64,000 nt of DNA, taken from assembly GCF_003019035.1 (NCBI RefSeq), contig NZ_CP027447.1; one strand, given 5' to 3'. Below, in pieces: positions 3,652 to 41,384 of the stretch (position 1 is its first letter; every line of letters begins with the position of its first letter). Under the pieces are notes generated by a model. That model had not been told where the DNA came from, searched no databases, and saw only the letters and a list, made by a program, of their open reading frames with translations. The DNA comes from Escherichia coli (GTDB taxonomy: Bacteria > Pseudomonadota > Gammaproteobacteria > Enterobacterales > Enterobacteriaceae). Position numbers and translations under genes: made by a program.

Positions 3652-3705
3652 GAAAAATATCCTCTTTGTTTTGTTAAAAATACATAGCTGGTATAGGTGG
3701 GAGTT

Positions 3706-4671: not shown

Positions 4672-4677
4672 TTATAC

Positions 4678-5768: not shown

Positions 5769-5815
5769 ACCAACGGGCAGCGCCGAGCCTTCCCCTAAAC
5801 CAACGTTTTCATGCG
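5588..5815 (-). repeat. Repeat copy 3 with candidate crossover site
   Basis: Minus-strand GAAAACG-TT-GGTTTAGGGGAA (plus-strand core 5802-5803) directly after the stop of cassette 2. Confidence 0.7.
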
Positions 5816-6147
5816 GCTCTTACGATGTAATTGAATGCAACGTTGCGGGGGCGTGTTTCTGCTGTGCCGACAATACTGGTACTCAGTCCTGTCGCTGTTC
5901 GTTTGTTATTTTTATTCCCTTCGATAAGACAGTTGTAATCGTCATTACCAATTAACGAGTTGGTGGCATCAATACCGTCCGGGGACAAGGCATTAGTTGT
6001 GGAACTTAAAGTCAGCATCTCGTCTGAACTTGGAAGATTTTTTAATGGGGTCTCATTACGTGAAATACCCGCATAAAAAAAGGACTCATGCCTGTGCGCT
6101 TCAAAAGAGTCATCCTGAAGACTTAGCAAGGCACGCCCAGCATCCAA
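5809..6147 (-). CDS. Alternative tail-fibre C-terminal cassette 2 (variable part; conserved block lies upstream at ~6135..6357)
   Basis: Track ORF opens at TTG within ...WDDGRGLDAGRALLSLQDD...; ends ETRPRNVAFNYIVRAA. Confidence 0.6.
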   Translation of the reverse strand: MDAGRALLSLQDDSFEAHRHESFFYAGISRNETPLKNLPSSDEMLTLSSTTNALSPDGIDATNSLIGNDDYNCLIEGNKNNKRTATGLSTSIVGTAETRPRNVAFNYIVRAA

Positions 6148-6358
6148 GCCACGTCCATCATCCCAGCCACGGATAAATTCACCCCGTAGATCCGGTAATT
6201 TGTTCGCGGGGTAAGCCTGTGCCAGTTTGGGGTAATCTTCAGAAGAAAATGCTGCGCCGTTGCATTTCAGCCAGCCCGTTGGTGGAGTGGCTGAGGGCCA
6301 CGGAACAGGTACACCAACGGGCAGTGCAGAGCCTTCCCCAAACCAACGTTTCTATGCT
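6135..6358 (-). repeat. Repeat copy 2 with candidate crossover site
   Basis: Minus-strand AGAAACG-TT-GGTTTGGGGAAGG (plus-strand core 6345-6346) abutting the stop of the expressed fibre gene. Confidence 0.7.
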
Positions 6359-12150: not shown

Positions 12151-14615
12151 CAGCTGTACTCCTTACGTTGTTTCTGAGCCAGCAGACGCTCCAGCATTTT
12201 TTCCAGCTCATGCAGGCTCATATTCAGGGCACCAGCCAGCCCGGCAGGCGCTGCGGTTTCCTTACCATTGAGGAAAAACTGAGGATTAAAGCTGACCTGG
12301 ATACCGCCAGACGCTCCACCGCCGGTTGCCGTTGCGCCACGGCCTGAATATCCGGCAGCCATGATTTCCGGCGACGGGATACGGGGAACATCCGGTGTCA
12401 TTTCAGCGGCCAGACGCTGCCCGGCCAGTGCAGCAAGCGGAGTGGTCCGTTGCAGGCCAATGGCGGCACCCTGCGCGATATTGTCACCAAAGCCTATAAA
12501 CACGCGACTCGGTGAATGGATGCCCAGCTTTTCGCTGAACCAGTCACTGATGCTGTCACCCATTCCGGTTATGCTGGTTTTCAGTGACTCCCATTTGTTT
12601 CTGATGCCATTTATCAGCCCGTCAATAAGATGACCACCGAAGTCGGTGAATTTCGCCGGCAAATCAACGCCGAGATATTTCAGCGCAGCCGCAAAGGCTT
12701 TATAAAGCAGACCTGCCGGAGACCAGTTAACCAGCAGTTTACCAATTCCCGCGATACCGCCGTTAAAGGCTTCCTGAATGTCAGCCCAGCGCTGTTTAAA
12801 CCAGCTACTGACCGCGCCCCAGTTGCGGTAGATAAGGTAAGCTGCTGCCGCGACGGCGGTGATAGCGAGACCGATGGGATTCATCATCAGCGCCCGGCCA
12901 ATCCAGAGAACGGCACGCCCGGCGCTCATAATTCCGCGAACCAGCCCCCCTGAGAGCACACCCCCCAGTGTTCTGGCTCCTCTGGCGACGGCACCAAAGC
13001 CTGTCACCAGCCAGCGGAGTTTACCGCCTTCCCCCAGTGCGAGCATCAGACGAAGCCAGTTGGCCCGAAGTAAAACAGCATTTTTCCAGACGCTTACAAA
13101 GGGGGAAATAAGGAGATTCAGCCCAAACTTGAGACCGATAGTGGCCATCCTGAAAGCGAGTAATGCGCCCACAACCTTTATGGTGCTGCTGACGAGCTGC
13201 GGATTTGCCGCTATCCATTTGCCGACGCTGTCCATTAAAGGAATAAATGTTTCACCCAACTGGAGCAAAGCCGGACGCAAGGATTGCCCGATGCTGATAG
13301 CAGAATCATTAAAGCCGATCTGCATTCTGCGCCAGCGACCTTCAAGCGTATCATTCTGCTTTGCAGCATCCTTATCCAGGGTAGACATTGCAGCCGGAGC
13401 ATTCATTTCCTGCTTACTGGAAAGGTATTTATCCCAGCCCTGTCGCATTGACAGTAAATGGTTGACAGTCTGAATATCGGTAAAGACCTCAGCCAGACCA
13501 AATGACTCCATGAGTTTCTGCTGACCTTCCTGATCGCCTCTTGCTCCTGCAGCTTTCCATTGCTGCAAAAACGCTTTGCCTTTACTGTCGATAAAACGGT
13601 TGGCAATCATCAGTGAAGCTTCGTACTGCGAAAAACCCTGAGCGACGTAATTCTGCATTGACCCCGGGTAATCCACCCCGGCTTTAGCATATTTCTGGAT
13701 GGTATCTCCGCGGCCCATTGCTGCCAGCCAGTTGGACATATTGGTGACCGCTTCCTCTGCAGAGCCACTACCTTTACCGACCTCCAGACTGGCAACAATC
13801 TGGGTAATCGCATCTTTTCCATAAATACCACGAGCAGCGAAGGCTTTAGCCATACCGGGTAATGCTTTTGCCATATCCTTCAGCTCAAATGACCCAAGTT
13901 TGGCTCCTGTTGCCGCAATACCAAATGCCTGTTCAAGTTCTTTCGCATCAGTGATTCTGAGTGCATCGCTGAAGGCATAAGTCATTTTGGCAAGGTCGGT
14001 CATATCGGCTTTGGTTGCTGTAGCGGTCTTTCCAAGCATCTCTGCAAACGTTGCTGCCCGTTCGGGGGCCATACCATCAGCAACTAATTGTCCGACTCCC
14101 CCTAACAGAGACTCCTGCAGTTGGTTAACCTTCAGCGAGGCCTGTCTGATAGCCAGGCCAATTGCACGTTCCTGTTTTGCATCCAGGTCTCCTGTGACAC
14201 TGATATCCCGTAACTGTGATTCAAACGAGGCATATTGTTTAACCGAGGCCATGACCGGTGCGCCCAGCGTTCTGCCAATAGCATAGGTTTCTGCACCCTG
14301 ACCATAGAGCGCCAGGCGGTTAGCCTTCAACGCATCACCGGTGGCTGATACTGCTGACAGACGGCGCTGCTGACGTTCAATTTGCTCCATGGTGCGGCTT
14401 ACCCGCAGCAACTCGCTGTTGAGATGCTGCATCCGGGAAGAACCCAGTTGACCATAACGTTCTGTTGCCCGGGTTAAGGCATTCTGGCGTTCCTGCAGAC
14501 GGCGGGAGGTATCACCAAGGGAATCAAGGGCGCGTCGGGTGCCACTGACGGCTGAGCGGAAGCTGCTCCCGACAATGCCGCCAATAATGACGCCGACTGA
14601 AAATTCACTGGCCAC
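12150..14615 (-). CDS. Tail tape measure protein
   Basis: 821 aa, alpha-helical N-terminus and Gly-rich hydrophobic central segments; downstream of the chaperone pair, as in Mu and P2. Confidence 0.8.
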   Translation of the reverse strand: MASEFSVGVIIGGIVGSSFRSAVSGTRRALDSLGDTSRRLQERQNALTRATERYGQLGSSRMQHLNSELLRVSRTMEQIERQQRRLSAVSATGDALKANRLALYGQGAETYAIGRTLGAPVMASVKQYASFESQLRDISVTGDLDAKQERAIGLAIRQASLKVNQLQESLLGGVGQLVADGMAPERAATFAEMLGKTATATKADMTDLAKMTYAFSDALRITDAKELEQAFGIAATGAKLGSFELKDMAKALPGMAKAFAARGIYGKDAITQIVASLEVGKGSGSAEEAVTNMSNWLAAMGRGDTIQKYAKAGVDYPGSMQNYVAQGFSQYEASLMIANRFIDSKGKAFLQQWKAAGARGDQEGQQKLMESFGLAEVFTDIQTVNHLLSMRQGWDKYLSSKQEMNAPAAMSTLDKDAAKQNDTLEGRWRRMQIGFNDSAISIGQSLRPALLQLGETFIPLMDSVGKWIAANPQLVSSTIKVVGALLAFRMATIGLKFGLNLLISPFVSVWKNAVLLRANWLRLMLALGEGGKLRWLVTGFGAVARGARTLGGVLSGGLVRGIMSAGRAVLWIGRALMMNPIGLAITAVAAAAYLIYRNWGAVSSWFKQRWADIQEAFNGGIAGIGKLLVNWSPAGLLYKAFAAALKYLGVDLPAKFTDFGGHLIDGLINGIRNKWESLKTSITGMGDSISDWFSEKLGIHSPSRVFIGFGDNIAQGAAIGLQRTTPLAALAGQRLAAEMTPDVPRIPSPEIMAAGYSGRGATATGGGASGGIQVSFNPQFFLNGKETAAPAGLAGALNMSLHELEKMLERLLAQKQRKEYS

Positions 14616-27882: not shown

Positions 27883-28229
27883 AGTCCTGTTGCCACAGCC
27901 AGACAGACCGCTGCAACAATCAGTGCACGGCGGATTAACGCAGCAGAAAATACAAGGTGAAGGCCGGTCTGCACAGGGAAACGCCCTTCAGCCATCAGCC
28001 TGTCTTCATGTTTCAGGTACTGACCGGGACGGGCTTTGGGGAAGAGTGAACGGTCAAGCCAGTAACCCAGCACTGCTGCCAGCGTGATGAGTGCCAGCTT
28101 GTAGATCACAACAGGCAGCTGCTGTGGCGAGACCAGAGCGATGGTGCCCAGCAACAGCACTGAGGTCAGCAGCCAGCCGCTGAGGCGAGGTTTTTTAACA
28201 GGGGGAATGAATTTTTTCAGGTTTTTCAT
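27879..28229 (-). CDS. Putative holin (3 TM segments)
   Basis: ATG at 28227-28229 preceded by AAGGAG (MKNLKKFIPP...); three hydrophobic helices; first gene of the lysis cassette. The track ORF begins at an upstream GTG. Confidence 0.5.
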   Translation of the reverse strand: MKNLKKFIPPVKKPRLSGWLLTSVLLLGTIALVSPQQLPVVIYKLALITLAAVLGYWLDRSLFPKARPGQYLKHEDRLMAEGRFPVQTGLHLVFSAALIRRALIVAAVCLAVATGL

Positions 28230-28359
28230 GTGTGTCTCCTTGTCTGGTGGAGACAGCATCACAAATACAGGGCGCGAAGGATTTTAAAGCGCGTTAAGAG
28301 AGCCGGGGATACGGGATGTGCAGGATAAACGATGAATTATTCACAGAGGAGAATACGAT

Positions 28360-28785
28360 ATGACGCAGACACTGAATCCGGTCATCACTGTCACCGTGTC
28401 CGGTCCTGTGGGCAGCGGTAAAAGTTACGTACTGGCGCGGATAGAAGAGATGGTGAAACAGGAACCCGGAAACAGCGTCATTGTCGATGCTGCTGACGTG
28501 GAGAATGAGCGCCGTATGAGTGGGGATGATCTGAGCACATGGCAGAAACCACAGGCAGGTACAATTATCCGACTGGAAGAATACACTGAGCGGGTAACTC
28601 TATCATATAGTGAGGAGCGCATTTGCCTGACGAATGCACTGCTGGAAGTTATATGTCCCGAAGGCAAGAGCCCCTGGATACTACCCGATGCTGTACATGC
28701 CGCAATTGCTGCATTGTTCGTATTATACGATCAGGAGCTGGTTTTAATGGAGTTATGTAAGGTTATTAAAGCTACAGAAAAGTAA
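28360..28785 (+). CDS. Hypothetical small P-loop protein (Walker A GPVGSGKS), orphan accessory gene
   Basis: 141-aa ORF with GAGGAG RBS; Walker A at residues 15-22; divergent from the late operon; no family recognised. Confidence 0.6.
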   Translation: MTQTLNPVITVTVSGPVGSGKSYVLARIEEMVKQEPGNSVIVDAADVENERRMSGDDLSTWQKPQAGTIIRLEEYTERVTLSYSEERICLTNALLEVICPEGKSPWILPDAVHAAIAALFVLYDQELVLMELCKVIKATEK

Positions 28786-28860
28786 AAATATTATCGGTAT
28801 CCTGTGGATGATAAAAACACGCTACCCACAGGATTACTTGTATAAAACCGTGGATAACAA

Positions 28861-29382
28861 CTAGATAAAACCATCATAGAAGTCATCCCTCTTACGAGAC
28901 CTGATACGAACTGGATTTGGCTCTCCTTTCAACCATACAGCACTGTTTTGACCACAAACCGGACACATGCAAAAACTGTCTTTTCGTATATGCAGGATAC
29001 TTTTCAGGTTTTTGGAATCAAAACAAGTCTGGCAAATATAATGTTCAGTTTCATCGTTTCCCGTATAACGATAAGCATAGAAGCCTTTTTCTTCACTCAG
29101 TAACGTCAGTTTATAATTACCGCGAAAGTTAAGAAGGTCTTCCAGAGAGCGAATTTTCTCTTCCAGATTGGTAATGGTTTTTTGCTGTTCTCCTAGCTTG
29201 CTCGTTACCTCAAAGAACTGCCCCTGTGCTTCAATAATTTTACTCTGTAATTCACTGGTCAAAGCGGCCTGTTTTATTTGATCACGCTCTTTTATTATTT
29301 TCTGAGCAGTACTGCTGATATAGCCAAGAGCTGTTAATAAAGCGTTTGTATCCATAGCACCCCGATATCCTCTAAACCACAT
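28861..29382 (-). CDS. Hypothetical coiled-coil protein with C-terminal zinc-ribbon (CxxC...CxCxxC), orphan accessory gene
   Basis: 173 aa (or 164 aa from the second ATG at 29355); heptad-like N-terminal half; C-terminal YICQTC...CMCPVCG; visibly AT-rich DNA. Confidence 0.55.
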   Translation of the reverse strand: MWFRGYRGAMDTNALLTALGYISSTAQKIIKERDQIKQAALTSELQSKIIEAQGQFFEVTSKLGEQQKTITNLEEKIRSLEDLLNFRGNYKLTLLSEEKGFYAYRYTGNDETEHYICQTCFDSKNLKSILHIRKDSFCMCPVCGQNSAVWLKGEPNPVRIRSRKRDDFYDGFI

Positions 29383-29422
29383 TAACAGAAATCACTTCAT
29401 CCCTGCCGCATCATGAAAGAAC

Positions 29423-29454
29423 GACCAGCCCGGCACCCGAAAGCCGGGCTGGTC
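29423..29454. other. Perfect 12-bp GC-rich stem-loop in the divergent intergenic region
   Basis: GACCAGCCCGGC-acccgaaa-GCCGGGCTGGTC between the 173-aa gene start and the methyltransferase gene. Confidence 0.5.
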
Positions 29455-29557
29455 ATCGTCCCACAGGAATGCACTGTGAGCCGACCGAGGTTCAGTCAGT
29501 CTCGCGAGACCAGACTAGCCTGCCATATTTTTAATAATTGTAAAAGGCTTACAGATT

Positions 29558-30322
29558 ATGAAAATGCAGTCATTACCCATCGTTCCATGGATTGGTGGCA
29601 AACGCCGCCTTGCAAAACACATTCTGCCGCTGTTTCCGGCGCATGAATGTTATGTGGAGCCGTTTTGTGGGGCAGCAGCGCTCTATTTTCTTAAGACACC
29701 CGGCAAGATCGAAGTCATTAATGATATCAACGGTGAACTGGTGAATCTGTACCGGGTGGTAAAGCATCACCTGGAAGAATTTGTCCACCAGTTCAAATGG
29801 GCGCTGGTCAGCCGTCAGATCTACAAGTGGCTGCAGATCACCCCGGAAGAAACACTGACGGATATCCAGCGTGCAGCACGGTTCTACTACCTCCAGAAGC
29901 AGGCGTTTGGCGGCAAGGTAGCAGAACACAGCTTCGGTACCTCCACCACATCCCCGCCACGCTTCAACCTGCTGCGTATTGAAGAAGAACTGTCAGCGGC
30001 ACACCTGCGACTTTCCAGAACAGTCATAGAACACATGGACTGGCAACAGTGCATTGAGCGCTATGATCGTCCGCACACGCTGTTCTACTGTGATCCGCCG
30101 TATCTGGGTACGGAAGGCTATGGTGTGGATTTTCCTGAAGGGAACTACTCGCGGCTGGCAGAGCTGGCCCGGTGCATCAGAGGAAAAATGATAATTTCGG
30201 TGAACGACATCCCGCAGATGCGCGAGGTGTTCACTGGACTGAACATACAGACAGTGAATATCAACTACAGTCTGGCGGGGAAACCCACGCCGCGCCGTGA
30301 ACTGATAATCTGCAACTTCTGA
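29558..30322 (+). CDS. DNA adenine methyltransferase, Dam-like
   Basis: 254 aa with the N-terminal AdoMet-binding region (FCGAAALYF) and the catalytic DPPY motif (YCDPPYLG). Confidence 0.85.
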   Translation: MKMQSLPIVPWIGGKRRLAKHILPLFPAHECYVEPFCGAAALYFLKTPGKIEVINDINGELVNLYRVVKHHLEEFVHQFKWALVSRQIYKWLQITPEETLTDIQRAARFYYLQKQAFGGKVAEHSFGTSTTSPPRFNLLRIEEELSAAHLRLSRTVIEHMDWQQCIERYDRPHTLFYCDPPYLGTEGYGVDFPEGNYSRLAELARCIRGKMIISVNDIPQMREVFTGLNIQTVNINYSLAGKPTPRRELIICNF

Positions 30323-30329
30323 AACAGAA

Positions 30330-30352
30330 CCGGAAAGCACAATGCTTTCCGG
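30330..30352. terminator. Hairpin between the convergent methyltransferase and repressor genes
   Basis: CCGGAAAGCA-caa-TGCTTTCCGG, 10-bp perfect stem, 8 bp after the methyltransferase stop. Confidence 0.45.
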
Positions 30353-30438
30353 TAAATCAGCCCATTCCTGCCATGCTACTGACGGCGCTTTCTGAAAGCG
30401 TCCAGATCAACCACCTGTCCTTTGTGTCCGGGTCAGAA

Positions 30439-30816
30439 TCAGCCTGTAAATTTACTTGGTTTGGGTTGAGTATAGAATCGCCCAACCTCAAGAAATGAGC
30501 GTCGTTGTTCCGGAGTCATTTCATCAAATGCGTCCATTAATTTTTGTTTTTCTGGTGACATTTTTGGGACAACATTGGTCATTACATCCCCTCTCTGTCC
30601 TGTAACAACGTAAAGCACGTCAAGCCCTAAAGTAGCCCAAATTGCCAAAGCATCTGCTCCGGGAGCGGATTCATCCTTTTCCCACCGCAATTGGCTTTTA
30701 TAGGATGCCCCCACCAATTCAGCAAACTCAGACTGACTAAATCCTAGGCGGTTTCGTTCTTCTTTTAATCGTGAGCCAAGTGACATTTTTGTCCAATACC
30801 TATTTACATGTCCCAT
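30439..30816 (-). CDS. Phage repressor, XRE-family HTH
   Basis: 125 aa with HTH LGFSQSEFAELVGASYKSQLRWEKDE; divergent from the early operon. Confidence 0.7.
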   Translation of the reverse strand: MGHVNRYWTKMSLGSRLKEERNRLGFSQSEFAELVGASYKSQLRWEKDESAPGADALAIWATLGLDVLYVVTGQRGDVMTNVVPKMSPEKQKLMDAFDEMTPEQRRSFLEVGRFYTQPKPSKFTG

Positions 30817-30878
30817 TTTTGGGATAATAATCTAACATATATAGAGCAAACATCATTGCGTTAATAAAGGAGGCAACA

Positions 30879-31067
30879 ATGACTGCAGAGCAGGTCAAAG
30901 CCCATTTCCGCCGCAACGGAATCACCTTTACCCAGTGGGCAAAACAGAACAACTACACCCGAGCAGAGGTTTACCGCGTACTGAATGGACAGGTAAAAGC
31001 GAACTATGGCAAAGCCCATGAAATCGCCGTCAAGCTGGGATTAAAAACCATCACTGACGCCGCTTAA
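30879..31067 (+). CDS. Small DNA-binding early regulator (Ner/Cro-like by position)
   Basis: 62 aa, strong RBS AAGGAGG; first gene of the early operon, divergent from the repressor. Confidence 0.5.
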   Translation: MTAEQVKAHFRRNGITFTQWAKQNNYTRAEVYRVLNGQVKANYGKAHEIAVKLGLKTITDAA

Positions 31068-31113
31068 AAAGATACAGCATGCGAAAAAGATTATCACATA
31101 TTGAAAAAGAGGT

Positions 31114-31428
31114 ATGCAGATGAGTAAGACGAATGTTTCAAGCTCCGGCAGTCGTATCCTCCGGGTACTCAAAGCGCTGCGCGGTCATGCCCTGAACGGT
31201 ATTTCCAACGGTGAACTGGCAGCAGCACTGCACGAGTCACCGGCAAACATCAACCGGGCACTCAACACCCTCATTGAAGAAGGGCTGGCCCTGAAACTGG
31301 AGAATGGACGTTTTGCTCCTGGCATCCAGTTACTGCAGATCGCCATGGCTCACAGTAACGAGATGGCACGAGCGCAGGATCGTATTAACGAAATCAACCA
31401 ACGTGTCATTTCAGGTAGTCGTTTGTAA
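31114..31428 (+). CDS. Winged-helix (IclR-type HTH-like) DNA-binding protein
   Basis: 104 aa; RILRVLKALRGHALNGISNGELAAALHESPANINRALNTLIEEGLA pattern. Confidence 0.45.
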   Translation: MQMSKTNVSSSGSRILRVLKALRGHALNGISNGELAAALHESPANINRALNTLIEEGLALKLENGRFAPGIQLLQIAMAHSNEMARAQDRINEINQRVISGSRL

Positions 31429-31438
31429 GGAGTAATCA

Positions 31439-32350
31439 ATGGGACGCACTAAATCACCAATGACCACAGATCTGAATGCTGAGGTGCCGCTTTCTGATGA
31501 TCTCAACGTCAGCCTGAATACCATGACACAGCATCGTATGGAGATCATGCAGCAGTTCGGCGACGGCCTGCCCTATGAACGTAATCGCATCGTTCACGAA
31601 GCTCGGTTTTATATGGACCAGAGTGCGGAGGCTATGCTGGAGGCAGGTAAACGTTTGGTTATCCTGAAGGAAAATGAACCTCATGGAGAATACGTACAAA
31701 TCGTCAAAGAACAGTTGAACCTTGAGCCACGCATAGCCCAAAAAATGGCCCAAGCTGCTCTGAAGTTTTTATCTCCAGAGCTGACATCAAAAGCGAAAAC
31801 GTTTTCGCATTTGGGAAGATCAAAACTGTACGAATTGATGTTAGAGGATGATGAAGACCTTGCCGAACTGGCCGACGGTGGCACAGTTGCCGGCCTGACG
31901 CTTGACGACGTTGATCGCATGTCAGTACGTGAATTGCGTCAGTCTCTTCGCGAAGCCCGCGAAACCAACGCAGCACAACAGCGCGTACTCGCCGACAAAA
32001 ATGAAAAAATAGACTCACTCTCCACCAGACTGGAGAAGAAATCCCGTATTCAGCCGCCTGAGCCTGATGAGGAGGTTAAGAAGCTGCGGGCGGAAGTGAC
32101 AGCATTAGCGGTTGAGGCGGAATCTGCCATCGCCGTTCGATTGTCCAGCGCTTTTGAGACGCTGTGTGCATATTGTGCTGAAAACATGATTGATACCCCC
32201 AGAGACTTCATGGCAGGCCTGGTCTGTCAACTGGAAAGCACAGCGCGTAGCCTGCGCTCCACATTTGACCTGCCGGACGAGCCAACAGGCAATGCAGCGC
32301 CTTCATGGCTGACTGAGCCGACGCCACAGATTAACGGGCTGGAGGCATAA
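31439..32350 (+). CDS. Hypothetical early protein
   Basis: 303 aa, helical/acidic, RBS TAAGGAG; immediately upstream of the transposase. Confidence 0.45.
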   Translation: MGRTKSPMTTDLNAEVPLSDDLNVSLNTMTQHRMEIMQQFGDGLPYERNRIVHEARFYMDQSAEAMLEAGKRLVILKENEPHGEYVQIVKEQLNLEPRIAQKMAQAALKFLSPELTSKAKTFSHLGRSKLYELMLEDDEDLAELADGGTVAGLTLDDVDRMSVRELRQSLREARETNAAQQRVLADKNEKIDSLSTRLEKKSRIQPPEPDEEVKKLRAEVTALAVEAESAIAVRLSSAFETLCAYCAENMIDTPRDFMAGLVCQLESTARSLRSTFDLPDEPTGNAAPSWLTEPTPQINGLEA

Positions 32351-32353
32351 CCA

Positions 32354-34135
32354 ATGAATGCTGCCCTGACTGAACGACTGGTTTATGTCGCCCGCGCGGC
32401 ACGTGACGCGGGGCATGGTAAACGCGGTGCAATATACGACGCTGCCTGTGCTGAACTTGGCATGTCCCGCGCCACTCTGCTGCGCAGGCTGAAGGAGGTC
32501 TCTGTGACTGATAAACGCAAAAAACGCGCCGATGCCGGGCGCAGCGCTCTGACCCGCGACGAAGCCGCGCTGATATCTGCCACACTGCGTGAGGCCACCC
32601 GCAAGAACGGTAAGCGTCTCTATTCCATCGCAGATGCAGTGGAAACCCTGCGGGCTAACGGCTTTATCTCCGCAGGCAGAACAGATGAAACCACCGGTGA
32701 GTTTTTCCCGTTGTCCGAAGATGCCATCAGTCGTGCCCTGCGTAACTATGGCCTGCACCCGGAACAACTGGATGCCCCTGCACCGCATACCGAAGTGGCC
32801 AGTCTGCATCCCAATCATGTCTGGCAGATTGACGCCTCACTCTGCACGCTTTACTACCTGAGCAATGGACATAAAGGGCTGCAGGTGATGGACAGCGCGA
32901 AGTTCTACAAGAACAAGCCCGCTAACCTTGCCCGTATCGCCAGTGACCGCGTGTGGAGTTACGAGATTACCGACCATGCCAGCGGCTGGATTTACGTTGA
33001 GTATGTGACGGGCGCGGAATCCGGTGAGAACCTGTGTTCTGTGCTTATCAACGCCATGCAGGAGCGCGGTGGCGCAGACGTGCTGCACGGCGTGCCGAAA
33101 ATACTCTATCTCGACCCTGGCTCGGCAAACACCGCGGGTATGACGAAAAACATGTGCCGCTCACTGGGCATCGACCTGATAGCGCACAGGCCGCATAACG
33201 CCCGCGCCACCGGACAGGTGGAAAAGGCGCGTGACATTATCGAACGCAAGCTGGAGCCGGGTCTGAAGTTCCGGCCGGTTCACAGTCTGGAAGAACTCAA
33301 CGCGCTGGCCGCGAAATGGCGCAGCCACTTTAACGCCACGGCTGTTCACAGCCGCCACGGTAAAACCCGCACGGATATCTGGCTGAAGATTACTGCTGAG
33401 CAGCTGAAAAAAGCGCCTTCCGTTGAAGTATGCCGTGAACTGGCTGTGGCGACACCAGAACTCCGCAAAGTCACGCCAAAACTTCGTGTCTCGTTCCGGG
33501 GCACTGAATTTGACGTATCAACGGTACCGGGCGTACTGGTTGGTGAAAAACTGATGATTACCCGTAACCCATGGCGCAGCGATGTGGCACAGGTGGTTCT
33601 GACCGGTGAGGACGGCCACGAGACGTTCTTCCTGGTCGAAGAGGTCAGAAAGAACGAGTTTGGCTTTGCTGAAGGCGCGGCGGTATTTGGCGAAAGTTAC
33701 AAAGCCCTGCCGGAAACCCCGGCACAGATGGCGGCAAAAGAAACCGAAGCGCTGGTTACCGGTACAGACAACGCCGCAGATGCAGCCGCCGCACGCAAGG
33801 CGAAGGCGCTGCCGTTCGGCGGGCGGCTTGACCCGTATAAACATATCGACGACACCACACTTCCGGCCTATATGCCGAAGCGTGGTCAGGCCTCTGACGT
33901 ACGCGGGCCGCGCACTGAACAACGTCCCATGACTCATGTGGAGGCCGCGAAAGCCCTGCGCGATAAGTTCAGCGCCGACGGCCTTACCTGGACGCCGGAA
34001 CATTACCGCCAGTTAACGGCACAGTACCCGGACGGCGTACCGGAAGCTGCACTGGATGAAGTCATGGCCACGCTGACCACGCCGGCCCGCAGCAGCGTTA
34101 TCAGCAGCGTTATCAGCATTGTTAACGGCAACTGA
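32354..34135 (+). CDS. DDE transposase (integrase catalytic core; functional analogue of Mu A)
   Basis: 593 aa; candidate catalytic region HVWQIDAS...YLDPGSANTAG; followed by the transposition ATPase gene. Confidence 0.8.
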   Translation: MNAALTERLVYVARAARDAGHGKRGAIYDAACAELGMSRATLLRRLKEVSVTDKRKKRADAGRSALTRDEAALISATLREATRKNGKRLYSIADAVETLRANGFISAGRTDETTGEFFPLSEDAISRALRNYGLHPEQLDAPAPHTEVASLHPNHVWQIDASLCTLYYLSNGHKGLQVMDSAKFYKNKPANLARIASDRVWSYEITDHASGWIYVEYVTGAESGENLCSVLINAMQERGGADVLHGVPKILYLDPGSANTAGMTKNMCRSLGIDLIAHRPHNARATGQVEKARDIIERKLEPGLKFRPVHSLEELNALAAKWRSHFNATAVHSRHGKTRTDIWLKITAEQLKKAPSVEVCRELAVATPELRKVTPKLRVSFRGTEFDVSTVPGVLVGEKLMITRNPWRSDVAQVVLTGEDGHETFFLVEEVRKNEFGFAEGAAVFGESYKALPETPAQMAAKETEALVTGTDNAADAAAARKAKALPFGGRLDPYKHIDDTTLPAYMPKRGQASDVRGPRTEQRPMTHVEAAKALRDKFSADGLTWTPEHYRQLTAQYPDGVPEAALDEVMATLTTPARSSVISSVISIVNGN

Positions 34136-34145
34136 GGAGGAAAAC

Positions 34146-35312
34146 ATGCTGGTACTGAAGCAGCAACTGAAAGAGGCCCGTATCCCACAGGCGGTGGTGG
34201 CGAGAGCTGTCGATGTTTCTGAGGCCACGCTGGCCCAGATTGTGAATCATAACGCGTGGCCCCGCACCCGCCCCGGAGAAGTGCGCCGGCGTCTTGCGTC
34301 CTGGCTGGAAAGTCAGGGGATTGATACAACGAAGAGTTTTGATGCTGTACAGGGCGCGGCCACGCCCCGTACAGCGGGTACCACAGATAAAACGAGCCTC
34401 AGTGAGGAAGAGAATATGTTACTCAAAAAACAGGTGTTATTTCCAGCAACCAAAAAAGCGTTTGGTCTTTTCCGTGACCCGTTCGCCGACGAAGCCATGC
34501 AGGGTTCTGATGATGTGTTCACCACCCCGGACATTCGCTACGTGCGTGAGGCGCTGTACCAGACAGCCCGTCATGGTGGGTTTATGGCCGTCATCGGTGA
34601 GTCCGGTGCGGGTAAATCCACGCTGCGCCGCGACCTGACTGAACGTATCAACCGCGAGAATGCGCCGGTAATTGTTATCGAGCCATACATCATCGCTATG
34701 GAAGACAACGATGTGAAAGGGAAAACCCTGAAGGCAGCAGCTATTGCCGAAGCCATTATCAGTACCATCGCACCACTGGAAAGCATCAGACGCAGTCAGG
34801 ACGCCCGCTTTCGCCAGTTGCATCGCGTCCTGAAAGACAGCAGCCAGGCGGGGTTCAGCCACGTTCTGGTGATTGAGGAGGCTCACAGTCTGCCCATTCC
34901 GACACTGAAACACCTCAAACGCTTTTTTGAGCTGGAGTCCGGTTTCAAAAAACTGCTGTCCATCGTGCTGATTGGTCAGCCGGAACTGGCGACAAAACTG
35001 TCTGAACGCAATATGGAAGTCCGTGAAGTCGTTCAGCGCTGTGAGGTGGTCGAACTTCTGCCTCTGGACAATAACCTTGAAGAGTTTCTGACGTTCAAAC
35101 TGCAACGGGCCGGTAAACAACTGACGGACATTATGGACGCCAGTGCAGTGGATGCCATACGTGCCCGCCTGAGCAATCCGGGAAGTCATCGTAAAAATAT
35201 GGTCAGCCTGCTGTATCCGCTGGCCGTCAGTAACCTGGTGATAGCCGCCATGAATCTGGCCGCTGAAATCGGGGTTCCACAGGTCAACGCTGACGTTGTC
35301 AAAGGGGTTTAA
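34146..35312 (+). CDS. AAA+ transposition ATPase (Mu B / TniB-like)
   Basis: Walker A GESGAGKST and Walker B VLVIEEAH; ATG at 34146 with GAGGAGG RBS; the track ORF opens at an upstream TTG. Confidence 0.75.
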   Translation: MLVLKQQLKEARIPQAVVARAVDVSEATLAQIVNHNAWPRTRPGEVRRRLASWLESQGIDTTKSFDAVQGAATPRTAGTTDKTSLSEEENMLLKKQVLFPATKKAFGLFRDPFADEAMQGSDDVFTTPDIRYVREALYQTARHGGFMAVIGESGAGKSTLRRDLTERINRENAPVIVIEPYIIAMEDNDVKGKTLKAAAIAEAIISTIAPLESIRRSQDARFRQLHRVLKDSSQAGFSHVLVIEEAHSLPIPTLKHLKRFFELESGFKKLLSIVLIGQPELATKLSERNMEVREVVQRCEVVELLPLDNNLEEFLTFKLQRAGKQLTDIMDASAVDAIRARLSNPGSHRKNMVSLLYPLAVSNLVIAAMNLAAEIGVPQVNADVVKGV

Positions 35313-35314
35313 TA

Positions 35315-35584
35315 ATGAAATCCACCACAGGTATCAACCAGCAAATCAGCAAAGTGCAGTCAGCCATTATGGCGCTTAAGGCGACGAACACGGATGTACA
35401 AAGCATCACCATCAGGGGTAACAAACCTGTCATCCGCGTTTCCCGGAGTGCGCATTGCATGCGCATGCTTGAGCAGGGAAAGGCCTGTTATCTGTATACC
35501 GGACATGACCACAGGGGATATTTCCGTCAGGGCGTTTTCGAACTGCACGGCTGTCGCGTCGTGTGGCCGGAATCTTTGTGGTAA
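35315..35584 (+). CDS. Hypothetical early protein
   Basis: 89-aa ORF directly after the ATPase gene. Confidence 0.4.
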   Translation: MKSTTGINQQISKVQSAIMALKATNTDVQSITIRGNKPVIRVSRSAHCMRMLEQGKACYLYTGHDHRGYFRQGVFELHGCRVVWPESLW

Positions 35585-35611
35585 TCAGCACAACTGGAGA
35601 AATCATAAAAT

Positions 35612-36142
35612 ATGGCAAAAAGTACAAAAGGGGCAAAACGTATCAAGTCCGCAGCGGCACTCTGGGTACCAGGGACACGCGAAGAGGTCATTGAGGGCAT
35701 CAGACTGCTCGGTGACGCACAACGTGAACTGGTCAGGGCTGAAACAGAAATGAATGACGCCATTGGCGATATCACCGCACGTTATGCCCCGCTCACCGAG
35801 AGCCTGAAAAAACGCATGGCCGAACTGCAGTCCGGTATTCAGACATGGTGTGAGGCACACCGTGATGAACTGACCGGCAACGGGAAGGTGAAGTTCGCTA
35901 ACCTCACCACCGGCGAGGTGCAGTGGCGAAACCGTCCGCCATCAGTCAGTATCCGTGGAGCGGATAATGTTATTGAACTACTGAGACGTCTGGGGCTTGA
36001 GCGCTTTATTCGTGTAAAAGAGGAAATAAATAAAGATGCCATTCTGAATGAAAAAGAGGCCGTGAAAAATATTCCCGGTATTACCATAAAAAGTGATATT
36101 GAGGATTTTTCAATAATTCCTTTTGAGCAGGATGTGCAGTAA
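35612..36142 (+). CDS. Gam-like host-nuclease inhibitor / DNA-end binding protein
   Basis: 176 aa, size and sequence character of Mu Gam; RBS GGAGA. Confidence 0.6.
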   Translation: MAKSTKGAKRIKSAAALWVPGTREEVIEGIRLLGDAQRELVRAETEMNDAIGDITARYAPLTESLKKRMAELQSGIQTWCEAHRDELTGNGKVKFANLTTGEVQWRNRPPSVSIRGADNVIELLRRLGLERFIRVKEEINKDAILNEKEAVKNIPGITIKSDIEDFSIIPFEQDVQ

Positions 36143-36239
36143 ACACACCACGTTAATTATTTAATAAAAATATTTTCTTTTTTATTCCGGCGTCAGCGCC
36201 GTGGGCTTCTGCACGCCGGAAACAGAGGAGAATTAAATT

Positions 36240-36434
36240 ATGATATTTAAATGTATTCAGTGCGAGAGGGATATAACAGCCCTGCGTTTTCACAGCGCCA
36301 TCGCCGTGATGTCCGGTAAATACCACATCCCTGCGGTACGCGTCACCCTGGTCTGCCCGTACTGCAGCCAGCATTTTTCGGCGGACGTGCCCGTCATGGA
36401 ATTCTCCCGCCCTGACAGGGAGGACGCGCAATGA
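36240..36434 (+). CDS. Small zinc-ribbon protein
   Basis: 64 aa with CIQC...CPYC; RBS GAGGAG. Confidence 0.45.
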   Translation: MIFKCIQCERDITALRFHSAIAVMSGKYHIPAVRVTLVCPYCSQHFSADVPVMEFSRPDREDAQ

Positions 36435-36703
36435 TTACCCCACAGGAAGCACGACAGCGCACCCGAACCCTTGTTGAACACTATGTCAACGAGTGTGAAT
36501 GCCGCGACCTCACCGATGTGAAGCACGTCCTGACGGCGCTAATCAGCATGGCCGCTCAGGCCATTGTGGCGACCAACGGAAAGGCGGCTGCCCTGCAGGT
36601 ACTGGTGAACACACTCACCCACACGGCAGAGCATGAGGTGCCGTACCGGATGGAAACCACTGCAGAAGGCGGCCTGCACATCACCGTCAGCCGGAAGCAC
36701 TGA
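36431..36703 (+). CDS. Hypothetical early protein
   Basis: 90 aa; ATGA overlap with the upstream gene. Confidence 0.4.
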   Translation: MITPQEARQRTRTLVEHYVNECECRDLTDVKHVLTALISMAAQAIVATNGKAAALQVLVNTLTHTAEHEVPYRMETTAEGGLHITVSRKH

Positions 36704-36712
36704 GGGCGCGGC

Positions 36713-37009
36713 ATGACACGAAACACCGAACTCACCCGCACCGCCCTCTACCGTCTGGCCCTGCACCGTTTCGGGCCGGACGCACAGGCCCTGAAACTGA
36801 CAGAAGAGGCCGCTGAACTGGCGGCCAGTGCTGCCCGCAATCTGAACGGACAGGGCAACGAAAGTGACCTCGCGGCAGAGCTGGCAGACGTGGAAATCAT
36901 GACAGAGCAATTGCGCCTTCAGGGGATGGACCGGCTGATTGACTTCCACAAACAGAAAAAACTGGAACGTCTGGCTGCACGACTGGGCGTGATTTACACG
37001 AACGAGTAA
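36713..37009 (+). CDS. MazG-like nucleotide pyrophosphohydrolase domain protein
   Basis: 98 aa with EExxE and ExxD motifs (LTEEAAELAA...ELADVEIM) typical of all-alpha MazG/HisE-type NTP pyrophosphatases. Confidence 0.5.
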   Translation: MTRNTELTRTALYRLALHRFGPDAQALKLTEEAAELAASAARNLNGQGNESDLAAELADVEIMTEQLRLQGMDRLIDFHKQKKLERLAARLGVIYTNE

Positions 37010-37023
37010 CCGGGAGGCATTCA

Positions 37024-37239
37024 ATGGCTGACATACTCAGGGAAATCACCGCATGGATACTGATTCTTACTGGCCTGGCGACATGCCTCAGTGCGGGGGC
37101 AGCCCTGGCTGCCCTGCTGATGCACATAACAACACAGTGGTTATGGGAAAAGCTTAAAGCAGCATACAGCCTGAAAGAGCTGTCCGACGCTGTCCGGGCA
37201 TGGAAACGGCAGAAAAATACCGGAGATACAGAACAATGA
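37024..37239 (+). CDS. Small membrane protein
   Basis: 71 aa with one hydrophobic helix; RBS GGGAGG. Confidence 0.4.
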   Translation: MADILREITAWILILTGLATCLSAGAALAALLMHITTQWLWEKLKAAYSLKELSDAVRAWKRQKNTGDTEQ

Positions 37240-37919
37240 CAGACCAGAATAAACACATTGAGAAACTGAAAAAGTTGCTGGCGCTGGCCGCATCCGGCAA
37301 CCCGCACGAGGCCGCTCTGGCACTGCGCCGAGCCCGTAAACTGATGGATGTTCACGGCATCACACATTCCGACATTGCTATGAGTGATATTGATGAAACC
37401 ATCAGTCATTACTGGCCGACAGGCAGTCTCCGTCCACCGCGCTACATGCTGGGCCTGATGAACATCATCCGCGAGGCATTTGGTGTTAACTCCATCATTC
37501 ACCCCGGCACGCATCCGTCTGTGGGGTTCTACGGTAACCGGGAACGAGCGGCACTGGCTGCGTACACCTGGGAAGTGCTGGTCCGCCAGCTGAAAAAGGC
37601 GCGTCAGCAGTATATCAGCGCACAGAACAAAAGAATAAAAAACGCCACCCGTACCAGCCGTGGAGACCAGTTTGCTGAAGGCTGGGTACTGGCCGTTATC
37701 AGTGAAATACAGTCCTTTGCCCTGACCGATGATGAGCGTGAACTGATGCAACAGTGGCTGGAACATAAATACCCGCAAACGCAAACCACCAGGGCGCGTA
37801 AACCGGGAAGAAGCCGCAATGGCGACGCCTCGCGCTATGCGGGGTTTCGTGAAGGGCAGAACGTCAGACTGCACCGCCCGGTCAGTGGGCAGGAACAACA
37901 GAAACTGGAGGCCAGATGA
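37236..37919 (+). CDS. Early protein with DUF2786-like N-terminal domain
   Basis: MTDQNKHIEKLKKLLALAASGNPHEAALALRRARKLM...; ATGA overlap with the upstream gene. Confidence 0.5.
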   Translation: MTDQNKHIEKLKKLLALAASGNPHEAALALRRARKLMDVHGITHSDIAMSDIDETISHYWPTGSLRPPRYMLGLMNIIREAFGVNSIIHPGTHPSVGFYGNRERAALAAYTWEVLVRQLKKARQQYISAQNKRIKNATRTSRGDQFAEGWVLAVISEIQSFALTDDERELMQQWLEHKYPQTQTTRARKPGRSRNGDASRYAGFREGQNVRLHRPVSGQEQQKLEAR

Positions 37920-38146
37920 TTACGCTATCAGGTAACAGCCGGAAATTAAAAGCCTGCCGAATATCTGCCAGATACCTTTTTGCCCGCGCCTTTTTTAAGA
38001 ACGTCAGGCCGGGGATCACAATTGGTGTTATTGCCGGACGCGAACAGGTTGAAAAATACATGTCAGGTGCATGGTGGGATAACGACCCTGTCATTGCTGC
38101 CCGTAATATTCATATCAGTTGGGGGGATATTCAGAATGACGGCTGA
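37916..38146 (+). CDS. Hypothetical protein
   Basis: 76-aa ORF, ATGA overlap with the upstream gene. Confidence 0.35.
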   Translation: MITLSGNSRKLKACRISARYLFARAFFKNVRPGITIGVIAGREQVEKYMSGAWWDNDPVIAARNIHISWGDIQNDG

Positions 38147-38351
38147 ATCTGTTGTATGTGCCCTGTTCTGGTATTGTTTTGTCGGTTGGTGTACTGCTGA
38201 ACTGCACCGCCGTTCAGGGTTTTATTCACGTTACAGTGGTGCCGGCTACTGGATTAGCTGGTCGGTGATGTTCCTGTGCTGGCCTGTGGCGCTTCCTTTA
38301 TATGTCGGTTATATCGGTGGCGCAGGTAAAAGGAGCAACGATGATGACTAA
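38136..38351 (+). CDS. Small membrane protein
   Basis: 71 aa from the ATG at 38136 after a G-rich RBS; two hydrophobic helices. Confidence 0.4.
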   Translation: MTAESVVCALFWYCFVGWCTAELHRRSGFYSRYSGAGYWISWSVMFLCWPVALPLYVGYIGGAGKRSNDDD

Positions 38352-38793
38352 ACAACGTCTTATCCAGCTCATTCATATTGCCCGTAATGAACTGGGTATG
38401 GATGAAGACACCTACCGCCAGATGTTACAGGGGCTGACCGGTAAAGCCTCAACCAAAGGAATGGATACCACACAACTAAACTGCGTGCTGGAATCCATGA
38501 AAAGGAAAGGCTTTCGCGTTAAGCCTGCCGGAAAAGCCAGCTCCGGTTTACCGCTGGATAACCATCCGCAGTCCAGGAAAATCCGTGCGCTATGGCTTGA
38601 AATGGCTGCTGCCGGCATTGTTCGTGACCGTTCAGAAAATGCATTAGCGCGGTGGATCAAGCGGGAAACGGGCATCAGCGCCCTGCGCTGGCTCAATACT
38701 GAACAGGCAAGCAGTGTTATTGAGAAACTGAAGAAGTGGCAGCACAGAGCTGCGGGAGTAAAACATGAGCGACCTGAATCAGTTTCGAAGTAA
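38341..38793 (+). CDS. GemA/gp16-like protein
   Basis: MMTKQRLIQLIHIARNELGMDEDTYRQMLQGLTGKAS... matches the GemA family pattern. Confidence 0.6.
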   Translation: MMTKQRLIQLIHIARNELGMDEDTYRQMLQGLTGKASTKGMDTTQLNCVLESMKRKGFRVKPAGKASSGLPLDNHPQSRKIRALWLEMAAAGIVRDRSENALARWIKRETGISALRWLNTEQASSVIEKLKKWQHRAAGVKHERPESVSK

Positions 38794-39163
38794 AGGGCCG
38801 GAACTCCTGGTGGAGCTGGCACAGCATACCTCTGAGACCGTTCGCGAGATTATTGATATTGAGCCCGCAATTGCCGACCAGATTGGTCAGGCCGTCGCGA
38901 ACCGAATGATGCAGGTCTGGGGCGGGCAAAACGTTTATTTCCCGATGGGCATGGTATGGAAGGTCAGTCAGCGCGACCGGGAAATCTTCAGGGAGTTTAA
39001 CGGACGCAACCACCACGAACTGGCCCGCAAGTTTGGTGTTTCGCTTCAGTGGGTCTACAGCGTGGTTAAGCGGGTCAGAAAAGAAGAACTGGATCGGATG
39101 CAGGGCAGGTTGTTTGATGAAGATCTGCCAGAGGAGACGAAAGACGTTAACAAATCCAGATAA
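38765..39163 (+). CDS. Mor/C-family transcription activator
   Basis: C-terminal GGQNVYFPMG...RDREIFREFNGRNHHELARKFGVSLQWVYSVVKR matches the Mor/C pattern (GGxxVYIPxG...FNGRN..EL...YGV...VY). Confidence 0.7.
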   Translation: MSDLNQFRSKGPELLVELAQHTSETVREIIDIEPAIADQIGQAVANRMMQVWGGQNVYFPMGMVWKVSQRDREIFREFNGRNHHELARKFGVSLQWVYSVVKRVRKEELDRMQGRLFDEDLPEETKDVNKSR

Positions 39164-39205
39164 TTCCTGCTTGTTAAAGTCCTTTCAAAAATCTCCTTAT
39201 TGTAT

Positions 39206-39240
39206 AAAAGCACGGTAGACCCCTTACCGTGCTTTTTTTA
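39206..39240 (+). terminator. Rho-independent terminator after the Mor-like gene
   Basis: GCACGGTA-gacccct-TACCGTGC followed by a run of seven T. Confidence 0.7.
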
Positions 39241-39277
39241 TGCTCTCTCTTTAGTATTCAGGATGCAGGGAGAAAAT

Positions 39278-39910
39278 ATGTTTGACGTTTCGTTGTTAAA
39301 TCTGCCATGGGCAACACTGGTGACCCTGACCAGTGGCTATATTGGGTATTTTATTGCGAATGTGGGACTGAAGGATCACCACAAGCCCATTGAGGTGACT
39401 TTTTCTTCGCTGATTTTTGGCCTGACAGCAATGATGGCTTACCAGGCTGTTATGTGGGCAGGTCTGAATGCCTGGCTGGCAACACCACCAGCACTTCTGT
39501 GTGCCGTTACATGCGGTGCGTGGTGGCGCAGGTACGGTCGCAAATGGATGTACAGATTACTGTGGAATAATGATATTTCATGGTCTGACGATACCAGCTC
39601 AGCATGGCAGGCAATGTTTGATCAAACAGGCTTCAGCGTTACCGAGGTCAGAGTGATTCTTCGCGATGGTTCCGGTATGATGTCACGGCTGCCAGGGAAC
39701 TTTGAAGAGTGGCCTAACGGTCCGTTTACCCTGGGGAATAAAGGCGATATGGTTCTTTACGTCACGCACAGCAGCCCTTCAGGCAGTAACGAATGGGAAG
39801 AGTATAAAGGCGTGGTTGATAAGTACTGGGGAGCTCTGGCAACCTATATTCCAGCAGATCAGATTGCCAGAGTGGAGATCAGGCGCGTTCGTGCAACGAA
39901 CGATGAATGA
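39278..39910 (+). CDS. Hypothetical membrane protein (3 predicted TM helices plus soluble C-terminal domain), terminal accessory gene
   Basis: 210 aa from the ATG at 39278 with RBS AGGGAG; follows a terminator; last gene before the prophage end. Confidence 0.55.
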   Translation: MFDVSLLNLPWATLVTLTSGYIGYFIANVGLKDHHKPIEVTFSSLIFGLTAMMAYQAVMWAGLNAWLATPPALLCAVTCGAWWRRYGRKWMYRLLWNNDISWSDDTSSAWQAMFDQTGFSVTEVRVILRDGSGMMSRLPGNFEEWPNGPFTLGNKGDMVLYVTHSSPSGSNEWEEYKGVVDKYWGALATYIPADQIARVEIRRVRATNDE

Positions 39911-40226
39911 TGTTTATTTTTTCCCTGGGGCAGGGGCTGCCGGCATAGTGGTTTTATTGGCAGAGGAAGACGATTCTCCTTTTCTACCGGAATCGCGCTC
40001 GAACGTCACGATGTGCTTGCTTTTGGGCTTTTCTGAGTAATCCAGGCTATCATGCTTATTGTTTTGAGTAGTCATTGGAATCATCCTTTTTGTTGCGGGT
40101 CATGTTTCAGCAAACTCGATTCTAAGTTGCCAGGAAGGATGATTTCAATGCCCGACTTATCTATCGTATAGCGGAAAAGAATTTCAGTTCTGTTCACCAG
40201 AACCCATGTTAACCCACTCCAATTCG

Positions 40227-40271
40227 TTATTTATCTCACGGATCCCCCTTCATTTATCTCATGTCTGATCA
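40227..40271. repeat. Left-end terminal inverted repeat with two putative transposase-binding motifs
   Basis: Reverse complement reads TGATCAGACATGAGATAAATG...CCGTGAGATAAAT, mirroring the right end. Confidence 0.55.
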
Positions 40272-40277
40272 AATCAA
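40272..40277. repeat. Target-site duplication, high-coordinate copy, (A)ATCAA
   Basis: AATCAA immediately after the CA terminus at 40271; identical to 2995..3000. Confidence 0.6.
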
Positions 40278-40435
40278 TAATCATCATGAATGTTTTGTTT
40301 ATAATTGGTTGATCCTACTTTCATTATGATTTGCTCATATTTGGTAGAACATGTAACCATGGATTCACATATGCCATATACTTTGACCATGAGGGATGCT
40401 TGCGTGGCGTTTCATGGTGAACAGGAGATTTTTCA

Positions 40436-40903
40436 ATGATTAAACGCGTATTGGTTGTTTCAATGGTAGGTCTGTCTCTTGTCGGTTGTGTTAATAACGA
40501 CACCCTGTCAGGGGATGTTTATACCGCTTCTGAAGCGAAACAAGTACAGAATGTCAGCTATGGCACCATCGTTAACGTACGTCCGGTACAGATTCAGGGC
40601 GGTGATGATTCCAACGTTATCGGTGCAATTGGCGGTGCTGTTCTTGGTGGTTTCCTGGGGAATACTGTTGGCGGCGGAACCGGGCGTTCTCTGGCTACTG
40701 CAGCAGGCGCTGTTGCAGGTGGCGTAGCCGGTCAGGGCGTACAGAGTGCAATGAACAAAACGCAGGGTGTCGAGCTGGAAATTCGTAAAGACGATGGTAA
40801 TACCATCATGGTGGTACAGAAACAAGGCAACACTCGTTTCTCTCCGGGCCAACGTGTCGTACTGGCCAGCAATGGCAGTCAGGTGACCGTTTCCCCGCGC
40901 TAA
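40436..40903 (+). CDS. slyB: Outer membrane lipoprotein SlyB
   Basis: 155 aa MIKRVLVVSMVGLSLVGCVNN... with lipobox and Gly-rich repeats. Confidence 0.9.
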   Translation: MIKRVLVVSMVGLSLVGCVNNDTLSGDVYTASEAKQVQNVSYGTIVNVRPVQIQGGDDSNVIGAIGGAVLGGFLGNTVGGGTGRSLATAAGAVAGGVAGQGVQSAMNKTQGVELEIRKDDGNTIMVVQKQGNTRFSPGQRVVLASNGSQVTVSPR

Positions 40904-40911
40904 ATAAGTTT

Positions 40912-40939
40912 GCGTGTGGTCAGGTTACTGACCACACGC
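40912..40939. terminator. Hairpin shared by convergent slyB and slyA
   Basis: GCGTGTGGTCAG-gtta-CTGACCACACGC, 12-bp perfect stem. Confidence 0.5.
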
Positions 40940-40949
40940 CCCCTTCATT

Positions 40950-41384
40950 TCACCCTTTGGCCTGTAACTCAATGATATTATGCTCAAGTTTTGCGATGAG
41001 CTTAATCAGTTGTTCCAGTTCCTCTGCGGAGATGCCATGTAAAATTTCCGCGCGGGTTTTGTTAATAACAGCTTCCATTTCGCTGATCAGCGGCTCTGCC
41101 TTTTCCGTCAGTTTAATACGTTTAGCCCGACGATCGCTGGCACAAGTTTGACGCGAAATTAACCCTTTTTCTTCCAGTTGGTCCAGAGTACGGACCAGTG
41201 ATGGCTGCTCGATGCCAATCGCTTTTGCCAGTTGAATTTGCGACTGGTCTGGAGGTAACTGATGGATATTGTGTAACGTAACCCAATGGGTTTGTGTTAA
41301 CTCCAGCGGTTTCAGGCGATGGTCTATCAGAGCACGCCATATGCGCACCAACCGTGCCAGATCAGAACCTAGTGGCGATTCCAA
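40950..41384 (-). CDS. slyA: MarR-family transcriptional regulator SlyA
   Basis: ...[33 protein letters not shown]...; start taken at the TTG with AAGGAG spacing (the track ORF starts two codons upstream at 41390). Confidence 0.85.

Follow-up and report, generated by a model that had tools for sequence, protein, structure and literature searches.

Does a prophage that ends close upstream of slyB alter the expression of that gene, or does it leave the slyB promoter working as before? The question is raised by a 64,000-nucleotide stretch of an Escherichia coli chromosome (hereafter, the window) in which a transposable prophage of 37,271 bp sits between anmK (minus strand, 2885 to 1776) and slyB (plus strand, followed by slyA and ydhIJK), genes that in K-12 are neighbors 273 bp apart. 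Direct control of slyB by PhoP has been reported in E. coli, just one other gene besides slyB is PhoP-activated in all enteric species examined, and SlyB feeds back negatively on PhoP (PMC2650801). A prophage that altered slyB expression could shift Mg2+ and envelope-stress responses. The reading that we favor, and consider likely, is that a BcepMu-type phage transposed at random into the divergent anmK-slyB spacer and left the slyB promoter intact, with slyB expressed and PhoP/Mg2+-regulated as before. The features on which the analysis turns are collected in Table 1.

Table 1. Positions and strands of the prophage, junction and slyB features in the window, with the basis for each assignment.
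Feature	Position	Strand	Basis or remark
Target-site duplication AATCAA, left copy	2995-3000		Read directly; empty-site alignment
BcepMu-like (Bcepmuvirus) transposable prophage	3001-40271		Termini 5'-TG...CA-3'
Far-end terminal repeats GCGATAAAC (3012-3020) and GAGATAAAT (3035-3043)	3012-3043	+	Sequence repeats
Gin/Hin-type serine invertase gene, reading outward toward co-oriented anmK	3079-3651	-	ORF and domain match
Candidate repressor, 125 aa, divergent from the early promoter	30439-30816	-	HTH_3 match below Pfam cut-off
Early promoter candidate, sigma-70-like, TTTACA-17-AATAAT (10/12)	30803-30831	+	Consensus match only
mor (Mor/C-family activator), last gene of the early operon	38765-39163	+	PF08765, E 1e-43
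Intrinsic terminator directly after mor, 13-bp stem and T7 run	39206-39239	+	Terminator prediction and folding
Terminal gene, 210-aa membrane protein	39278-39910	+	Annotation in RefSeq copies; phrog_12870
ORF for a small hydrophilic protein (53 aa), pointing toward the terminal gene	39914-40075	-	phrog_15726; RefSeq WP_001571575
GGCAG-ggg-CTGCC hairpin, enclosed by the 3' end of the small ORF on the minus strand	39929-39941	+	Sequence
Conserved inverted repeat, arms 40073-40088 and 40135-40150	40070-40153	+	Hairpin of about 20 bp on plus-strand RNA
Inward sigma-70-like promoter, TTGAAA-18-TAGAAT (10/12)	40119-40148	-	Consensus match
GAGATAAAT-like repeats at the slyB end	40252-40260, 40229-40237, 40155-40163 (2 mismatches)	-	Sequence repeats
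Stretch rich in C and poor in G (78 nt with 26 C, 7 G)	40185-40265	+	Composition; putatively rut-like
Target-site duplication AATCAA, right copy	40272-40277		Read directly; empty-site alignment
PhoP box TGTTTA-TAATT-GGTTGA (TGTTTATAATTGGTTGA)	40296-40312 (-41 to -25)	+	Sequence; architecture from PMC3335776
slyB -10 hexamer TATGAT, 12 nt past the PhoP box	40325-40330	+	Sequence
slyB transcription start site (40337) and 99-nt leader	40337-40435	+	K-12 start 1717801 (PMC3415461, supplement file 2)
slyB coding sequence	40436-40903	+	Gene match

Both ends of the prophage can be placed to the base. It opens with TGATGCGCC at the far terminus and closes with ...TCTGATCA on the slyB side, and alignment of the empty site of strain SCU-301 to both junctions reveals a clean insertion flanked by the two copies of the 6-bp duplication. 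The same phage sequence stops exactly at ...CATGTCTGATCA in three other genomes, with unrelated host DNA beyond, and position 40271 is therefore the last phage base. In strain Ec1117, where the phage inserted independently, both junctions carry a duplicated 6-bp target, GCTAGT. When the flanks in the window are joined minus one copy of the duplication, they give 273 bp, the length of the K-12 anmK-slyB spacer, with 1 mismatch; the 164 bases from the phage end to the slyB ATG are identical to K-12, and the remaining 109 bp of the shared spacer are now 37 kb away from slyB. An initial annotation of this DNA had put the phage end 164 bp before the slyB start codon and had placed the terminal phage gene and slyB on the same strand; the junction alignment and direct reading bear out the former, and the gene coordinates the latter. 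In a megablast search with positions 39600-41000 against 5,426 complete E. coli genomes, the host match begins only at window position 40269, and the slyB junction was found in none of the genomes.

The phage end itself is far from rare: a copy that is 100% identical adjoins inaA, kefF, tdh, rstB, fadM, mdfA, yodD and other genes in other E. coli genomes. Because the identical end lies beside so many unrelated genes, the slyB position is one random landing site among many, and we regard the insertion as an ordinary random one, at a landing site previously unrecorded, that involves no new mechanism and no demonstrated rewiring of slyB. At the tdh insertion (NZ_OY754357, 2762-2772 of the retrieved locus), PGAP starts tdh at an ATG inside the phage end (ATGTCTGATCA, followed by host DNA), which shows that an outward start codon can come from the final 11 phage bases and give rise to an annotated fusion ORF. 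A 145-bp match (89.7% identity) to window positions 40118-40262 is also present on ∼105 large E. coli plasmids, many of them from avian isolates; these matches resemble fossil remains of the end of a related phage.

The prophage has the features of a BcepMu-type phage, namely, a transposase/ATPase pair, TG...CA ends with repeats, and insertion at many sites with a short duplication. Phages of this type have TG/CA termini (PMC2628397 for the TG/CA rule) and random host DNA at their virion ends. An rve transposase (PF00665, E 3e-9; 32354-34135) adjoins an AAA+ ATPase (AAA_22, E 4e-20; 34119-35312), the plus strand also encodes Gam, GemA and Mor, and a holin and morphogenesis genes are found on the minus strand; the gene set looks complete. 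In the ORF map, the late genes occupy the minus strand at about 3.7-28.3 kb and the early genes the plus strand at about 30.8-39.2 kb, a divergent two-cluster arrangement that agrees with the description of BcepMu, in which regulators and transposase form one cluster that is read toward the left end and the remaining genes lie on the other strand (PMC2771037). On this genome plan, the "early" genes of the window prophage point outward, and the outward early transcription described in the initial annotation is thus in keeping with BcepMu. At both termini, repeats of the GAGATAAAT type are found 12 and 35 bp in, and a third, less well matched copy at about 110-120 bp; they are probably transposase-binding sites.

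Over positions 28000-40271, the window matches Escherichia phage PhiKM (PQ738613; its taxonomy line reads Bcepmuvirus) with 95.6% identity over 77%. Like the window prophage, PhiKM has an rve transposase and AAA ATPase, Gam, GemA, Mor, TG...CA ends and clusters on two strands, but it has only about 170 bp from mor to the terminus, whereas the window prophage carries a ∼950-bp extra module there that consists of a membrane-protein gene and a small convergent ORF. The window prophage further differs from BcepMu, which has been described without them, in having a Gin-type invertase and a multi-repeat tail-fiber region. It should be noted that the PhiKM record (at 14108-14475 of the retrieved sequence) runs past the ...AAGTCTAATCA terminus into a gene annotated as an Fe2+ ABC permease and then into tail genes; the permease gene looks bacterial rather than phage, and the record appears to include a packaged host flank joined across the two ends.

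What remains in front of slyB can be compared with the promoter as defined elsewhere. In Salmonella, the slyB promoter has "architecture I", with one direct PhoP box 12 nt before TATGAT, class II, and a 100-nt leader (PMC3335776). The window sequence TGTTTA-TAATT-GGTTGA conforms to the pattern (T/G)GTTTA-N5-(T/G)GTTTA and is followed after 12 nt by TATGAT, in agreement with the expected spacing of ∼12 nt. The genome-wide K-12 map gives a single slyB start, at 1717801 (NC_000913.2), with a 99-nt 5' UTR (PMC3415461), and the base that ends the 51-mer listed for this start corresponds to window position 40337, within the retained part; the Cappable-seq supplements hold no entries for the slyB region. 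The phage end lies at -66 of the promoter, 24 bp upstream of the PhoP box, and compared with architecture I, the retained part is the same, the change being confined to the phage DNA that now stands beyond -66. To judge from the sequence, the PhoP box, -10 hexamer, start and leader of slyB are intact after the insertion. The separation of slyB from its upstream DNA that had been proposed is thus real as geometry, but it does not entail the loss of a known control element, all of which lie within the retained 164 bp.

On the phage side, a strong intrinsic terminator stands directly after mor. Its sequence (AAAAGCACGGTAGACCCCTTACCGTGCTTTT, then more T) is predicted to fold into a G+C-rich hairpin of 13 pairs followed by U7 (dG -19.1 kcal/mol; z -6.1 against shuffled sequences), and it is the only strong plus-strand terminator from the candidate early promoter to the phage end; a search of Rfam with the hairpin returned chance-level matches only. 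We compared seven lineages (the window, Klebsiella, Salmonella, Proteus, two Serratia and Arsenophonus), and in the first six of these a terminator follows mor, with stem sequences that differ. Given this positional conservation, early-operon transcription very probably stops some 1 kb short of the slyB junction. The proposal that early transcription might read through into slyB is accordingly hard to sustain for the early operon, since the terminator intervenes between mor and the terminal gene, a position that the initial annotation, which looked for terminators only past 39910, had not covered. The initial annotation was correct in finding no canonical terminator after 39910 (none is predicted on the plus strand in 39911-40435) and in calling the GGCAG-ggg-CTGCC hairpin weak; the 61 nt around it have a z of -0.04 against shuffles, and it has no T-run.

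Beyond the terminator lies the terminal gene, whose predicted product has three transmembrane helices and a C-terminal Sm-like beta-barrel and whose distant homologs match DUF6338. Homologs with 55-69% identity directly follow mor at the prophage end in six other lineages (Klebsiella, Salmonella, Proteus, two Serratia and Arsenophonus). Neither the terminal gene nor the small ORF has a match in Pfam or PADLOC, and their PHROGs matches are to function-unknown families only. We considered the terminal gene as a sporadic "moron" and rejected this, the homologs at the same position in other genera marking it as a lineage feature, one that is absent from PhiKM. The Arsenophonus locus holds another Mu-like early region (GemA, Gam and Kil, on the opposite strand) ∼0.5 kb past the end of the first prophage, such that two transposable prophages lie end to end (3642-5642 of the retrieved locus); there, an additional palindrome interrupts the inward promoter.

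The 360 bp that close the phage (39911-40271) are more than a spacer, and the initial annotation had missed the inward promoter, the long hairpin and the C-rich tail in them. The frame of the small ORF is open in seven enterobacterial phage lineages, at 48-53 aa and with the N-terminal motif MTxQN..D(Y/F)SE.PK..V.FE, and its protein is probably disordered. The hexamers of the inward promoter are identical in the Salmonella and Klebsiella relatives. The inverted repeat, conserved in five lineages (copies in relatives include 4766-4847 and 4808-4884 of the retrieved loci), has one arm, 40135-40150, over the -35 of this promoter and the other, 40073-40088, over the ribosome-binding site and ATG of the small ORF. 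In S. marcescens, the arms TTTCAATG/CATTGGAA have become TTACAATG/CATTGTAA, both having changed with complementarity kept. Computed folding energies are -29 to -37 kcal/mol for the plus-strand RNA versus -16 to -27 kcal/mol for the minus-strand RNA, a comparison in which the G+T-rich plus strand raises the baseline; across the five lineages, the outward (plus) RNA gains 9-20 kcal/mol in hairpin stability over the minus-strand RNA and has 17 G.U pairs to the 2 of the latter. The hairpin (40070-40153) lacks a U-run after it, and no Rfam family matches it. The final 119 nt of the phage are C-rich and G-poor on the plus strand, a composition that is associated with Rho loading on untranslated RNA. 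A plus-strand AAGGATGATTTCAATG was examined as the start of an outward ORF and rejected, the downstream frames being short (7, 12 and 24 codons) and not conserved.

Taken together, the reading we favor would run as follows. The phage, transposing essentially at random, inserted 66 bp upstream of the slyB transcription start and replaced the native sequence from -67 upward, leaving the class II PhoP promoter, the start and the leader untouched, and slyB would keep the expression and the Mg2+/PhoP control that it has in strains lacking the phage. Early transcription would start near 30.8 kb, run outward, and end at the terminator after mor (39206-39239), provided that this is as efficient as its structure suggests, and a phage repressor would shut it off in the lysogen; the inward promoter, the hairpin, the terminal repeats and the C-rich tail would oppose or curtail any outward transcript. 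With its promoter whole and a terminator closing the early operon farther upstream, slyB is most likely expressed no differently after the insertion.

Three other readings have to be weighed against this one. Phage transcription might read out into slyB and so add a PhoP-independent input to a gene that damps PhoP. The terminal gene has the same orientation as slyB and ends only 525 bp before it, with no hairpin-plus-U terminator between them, and the terminal gene, being conserved and real, must be transcribed from somewhere; its transcript, if expressed in lysogens, could cross the junction, and slyB overexpression inhibits PhoP-dependent growth in Salmonella (PMC2650801). However, the strong, positionally conserved terminator parts the early operon from the terminal gene, no sigma-70-like plus-strand promoter is predicted between 39163 and 40435, and a transcript leaving the phage would have to pass the conserved promoter that faces it, the hairpin (-30 kcal/mol) and the rut-like tail. 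The early genes of Mu are repressed in lysogens, and by analogy those of the window prophage should be as well. We therefore think such read-out quite improbable. Alternatively, the native DNA that was displaced might have mattered for slyB or anmK, be it through a PhoP-independent promoter, a nucleoid-protein site or the promoter context of anmK. Two slyB starts, one of them PhoP-independent, have been reported in E. coli (Minagawa 2003, here only as cited in PMC3335776), anmK keeps only 115 bp upstream (2886-3000), in which no promoter is recognizable, and a K-12 minus-strand start inside slyB, with 11 reads and assigned to anmK, would yield a transcript that now enters the phage end. Against this, architecture I PhoP promoters have a single box that overlaps the -35 and are class II, at mgtA the alpha-CTD, and hence the upstream DNA, is dispensable (PMC3335776), and the only slyB start in the genome-wide map is in the retained part (PMC3415461). 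A regulatory effect of the lost DNA seems to us very unlikely.

The third reading defers outward transcription to induction, when a Mor-dependent, Pm-like promoter overlapping the hairpin after mor would make the terminal gene a middle gene; only cells that are already on the way to lysis would then show read-out. The arrangement is the same in Mu, with mor, a hairpin followed by T7 (GCCGGTTAATCCGGC, then T7, directly after mor, as in the window phage), and a -10 hexamer 10 nt later. The Mu hairpin is one that we take to be the early terminator T9.2, and the Mor-binding dyad of Pm appears to overlap it (1374-1425 of the retrieved segment). The Mor site of Mu is at -51 to -36, with the placement of Pm on the sequence being our own reconstruction, and in the window a TAGTAT 12 nt past the T7 run would put the center of the hairpin near -43. 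One element may thus serve as early terminator and middle promoter in Mu and in the window phage (39206-39264). On the other hand, a -10 hexamer at matching spacing is absent in four relatives (Serratia, Klebsiella, Proteus and S. marcescens), and the specificity of Mor in the window phage may not be that of Mu. The two phages also differ: transcription past mor runs inward into C and the late genes in Mu, whereas in the window phage it would run outward to the end of the genome, and their transposases belong to different families. We hold this third reading to be unlikely, and we return to the preferred reading, a random insertion that leaves slyB under its own promoter.

The junction with anmK merits at least as much attention as that with slyB. 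The stop codon of the invertase gene is 78 bp from the phage terminus, with a further 115 bp to the anmK ATG, and no terminator is predicted between the two genes. The gin gene of Mu is active in the prophage state. Beside the invertase gene, numerous inverted repeats lie among tail-fiber-like ORFs at positions 3711-6836, many of them long (220-275 nt, with 83-94% complementarity) and others of 38-63 nt; instead of a single G segment, they suggest a host-range region that undergoes multiple inversions, as in a shufflon. The minus-strand start inside slyB that the K-12 map assigns to anmK (1718250, with a 624-nt leader; PMC3415461) corresponds to about 40786 in the window, and a transcript from it would meet the phage end before reaching anmK.

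The value of the analysis is in the precise map that it provides of the junction and of the phage end. In its arrangement, this end recalls the fold-back inhibition of IS10/IS50-type elements, which, according to Davis, Simons and Kleckner in 1985, reportedly protects the elements from outside transcription: the window phage, too, has a repeat near its end with arms upstream of the element's own start and over a ribosome-binding site and ATG. Unlike in IS10, the hairpin is more stable on the opposite, outward RNA, and the gene concerned encodes a small protein and not a transposase. We suggest tentatively, as an idea that we rate as unlikely, that the inward promoter, the repeat with its 20-bp stem and the C-rich tail, which together take up roughly the last 200 bp, may form a transcriptional insulator of a randomly inserting phage. 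If so, outward phage transcripts would be stopped or processed at the hairpin and would not arrive at host genes. On transcripts entering from host promoters, the hairpin might also hide the small ORF, much as in IS10 fold-back, and insertions such as the one beside slyB would be kept transcriptionally silent by design.
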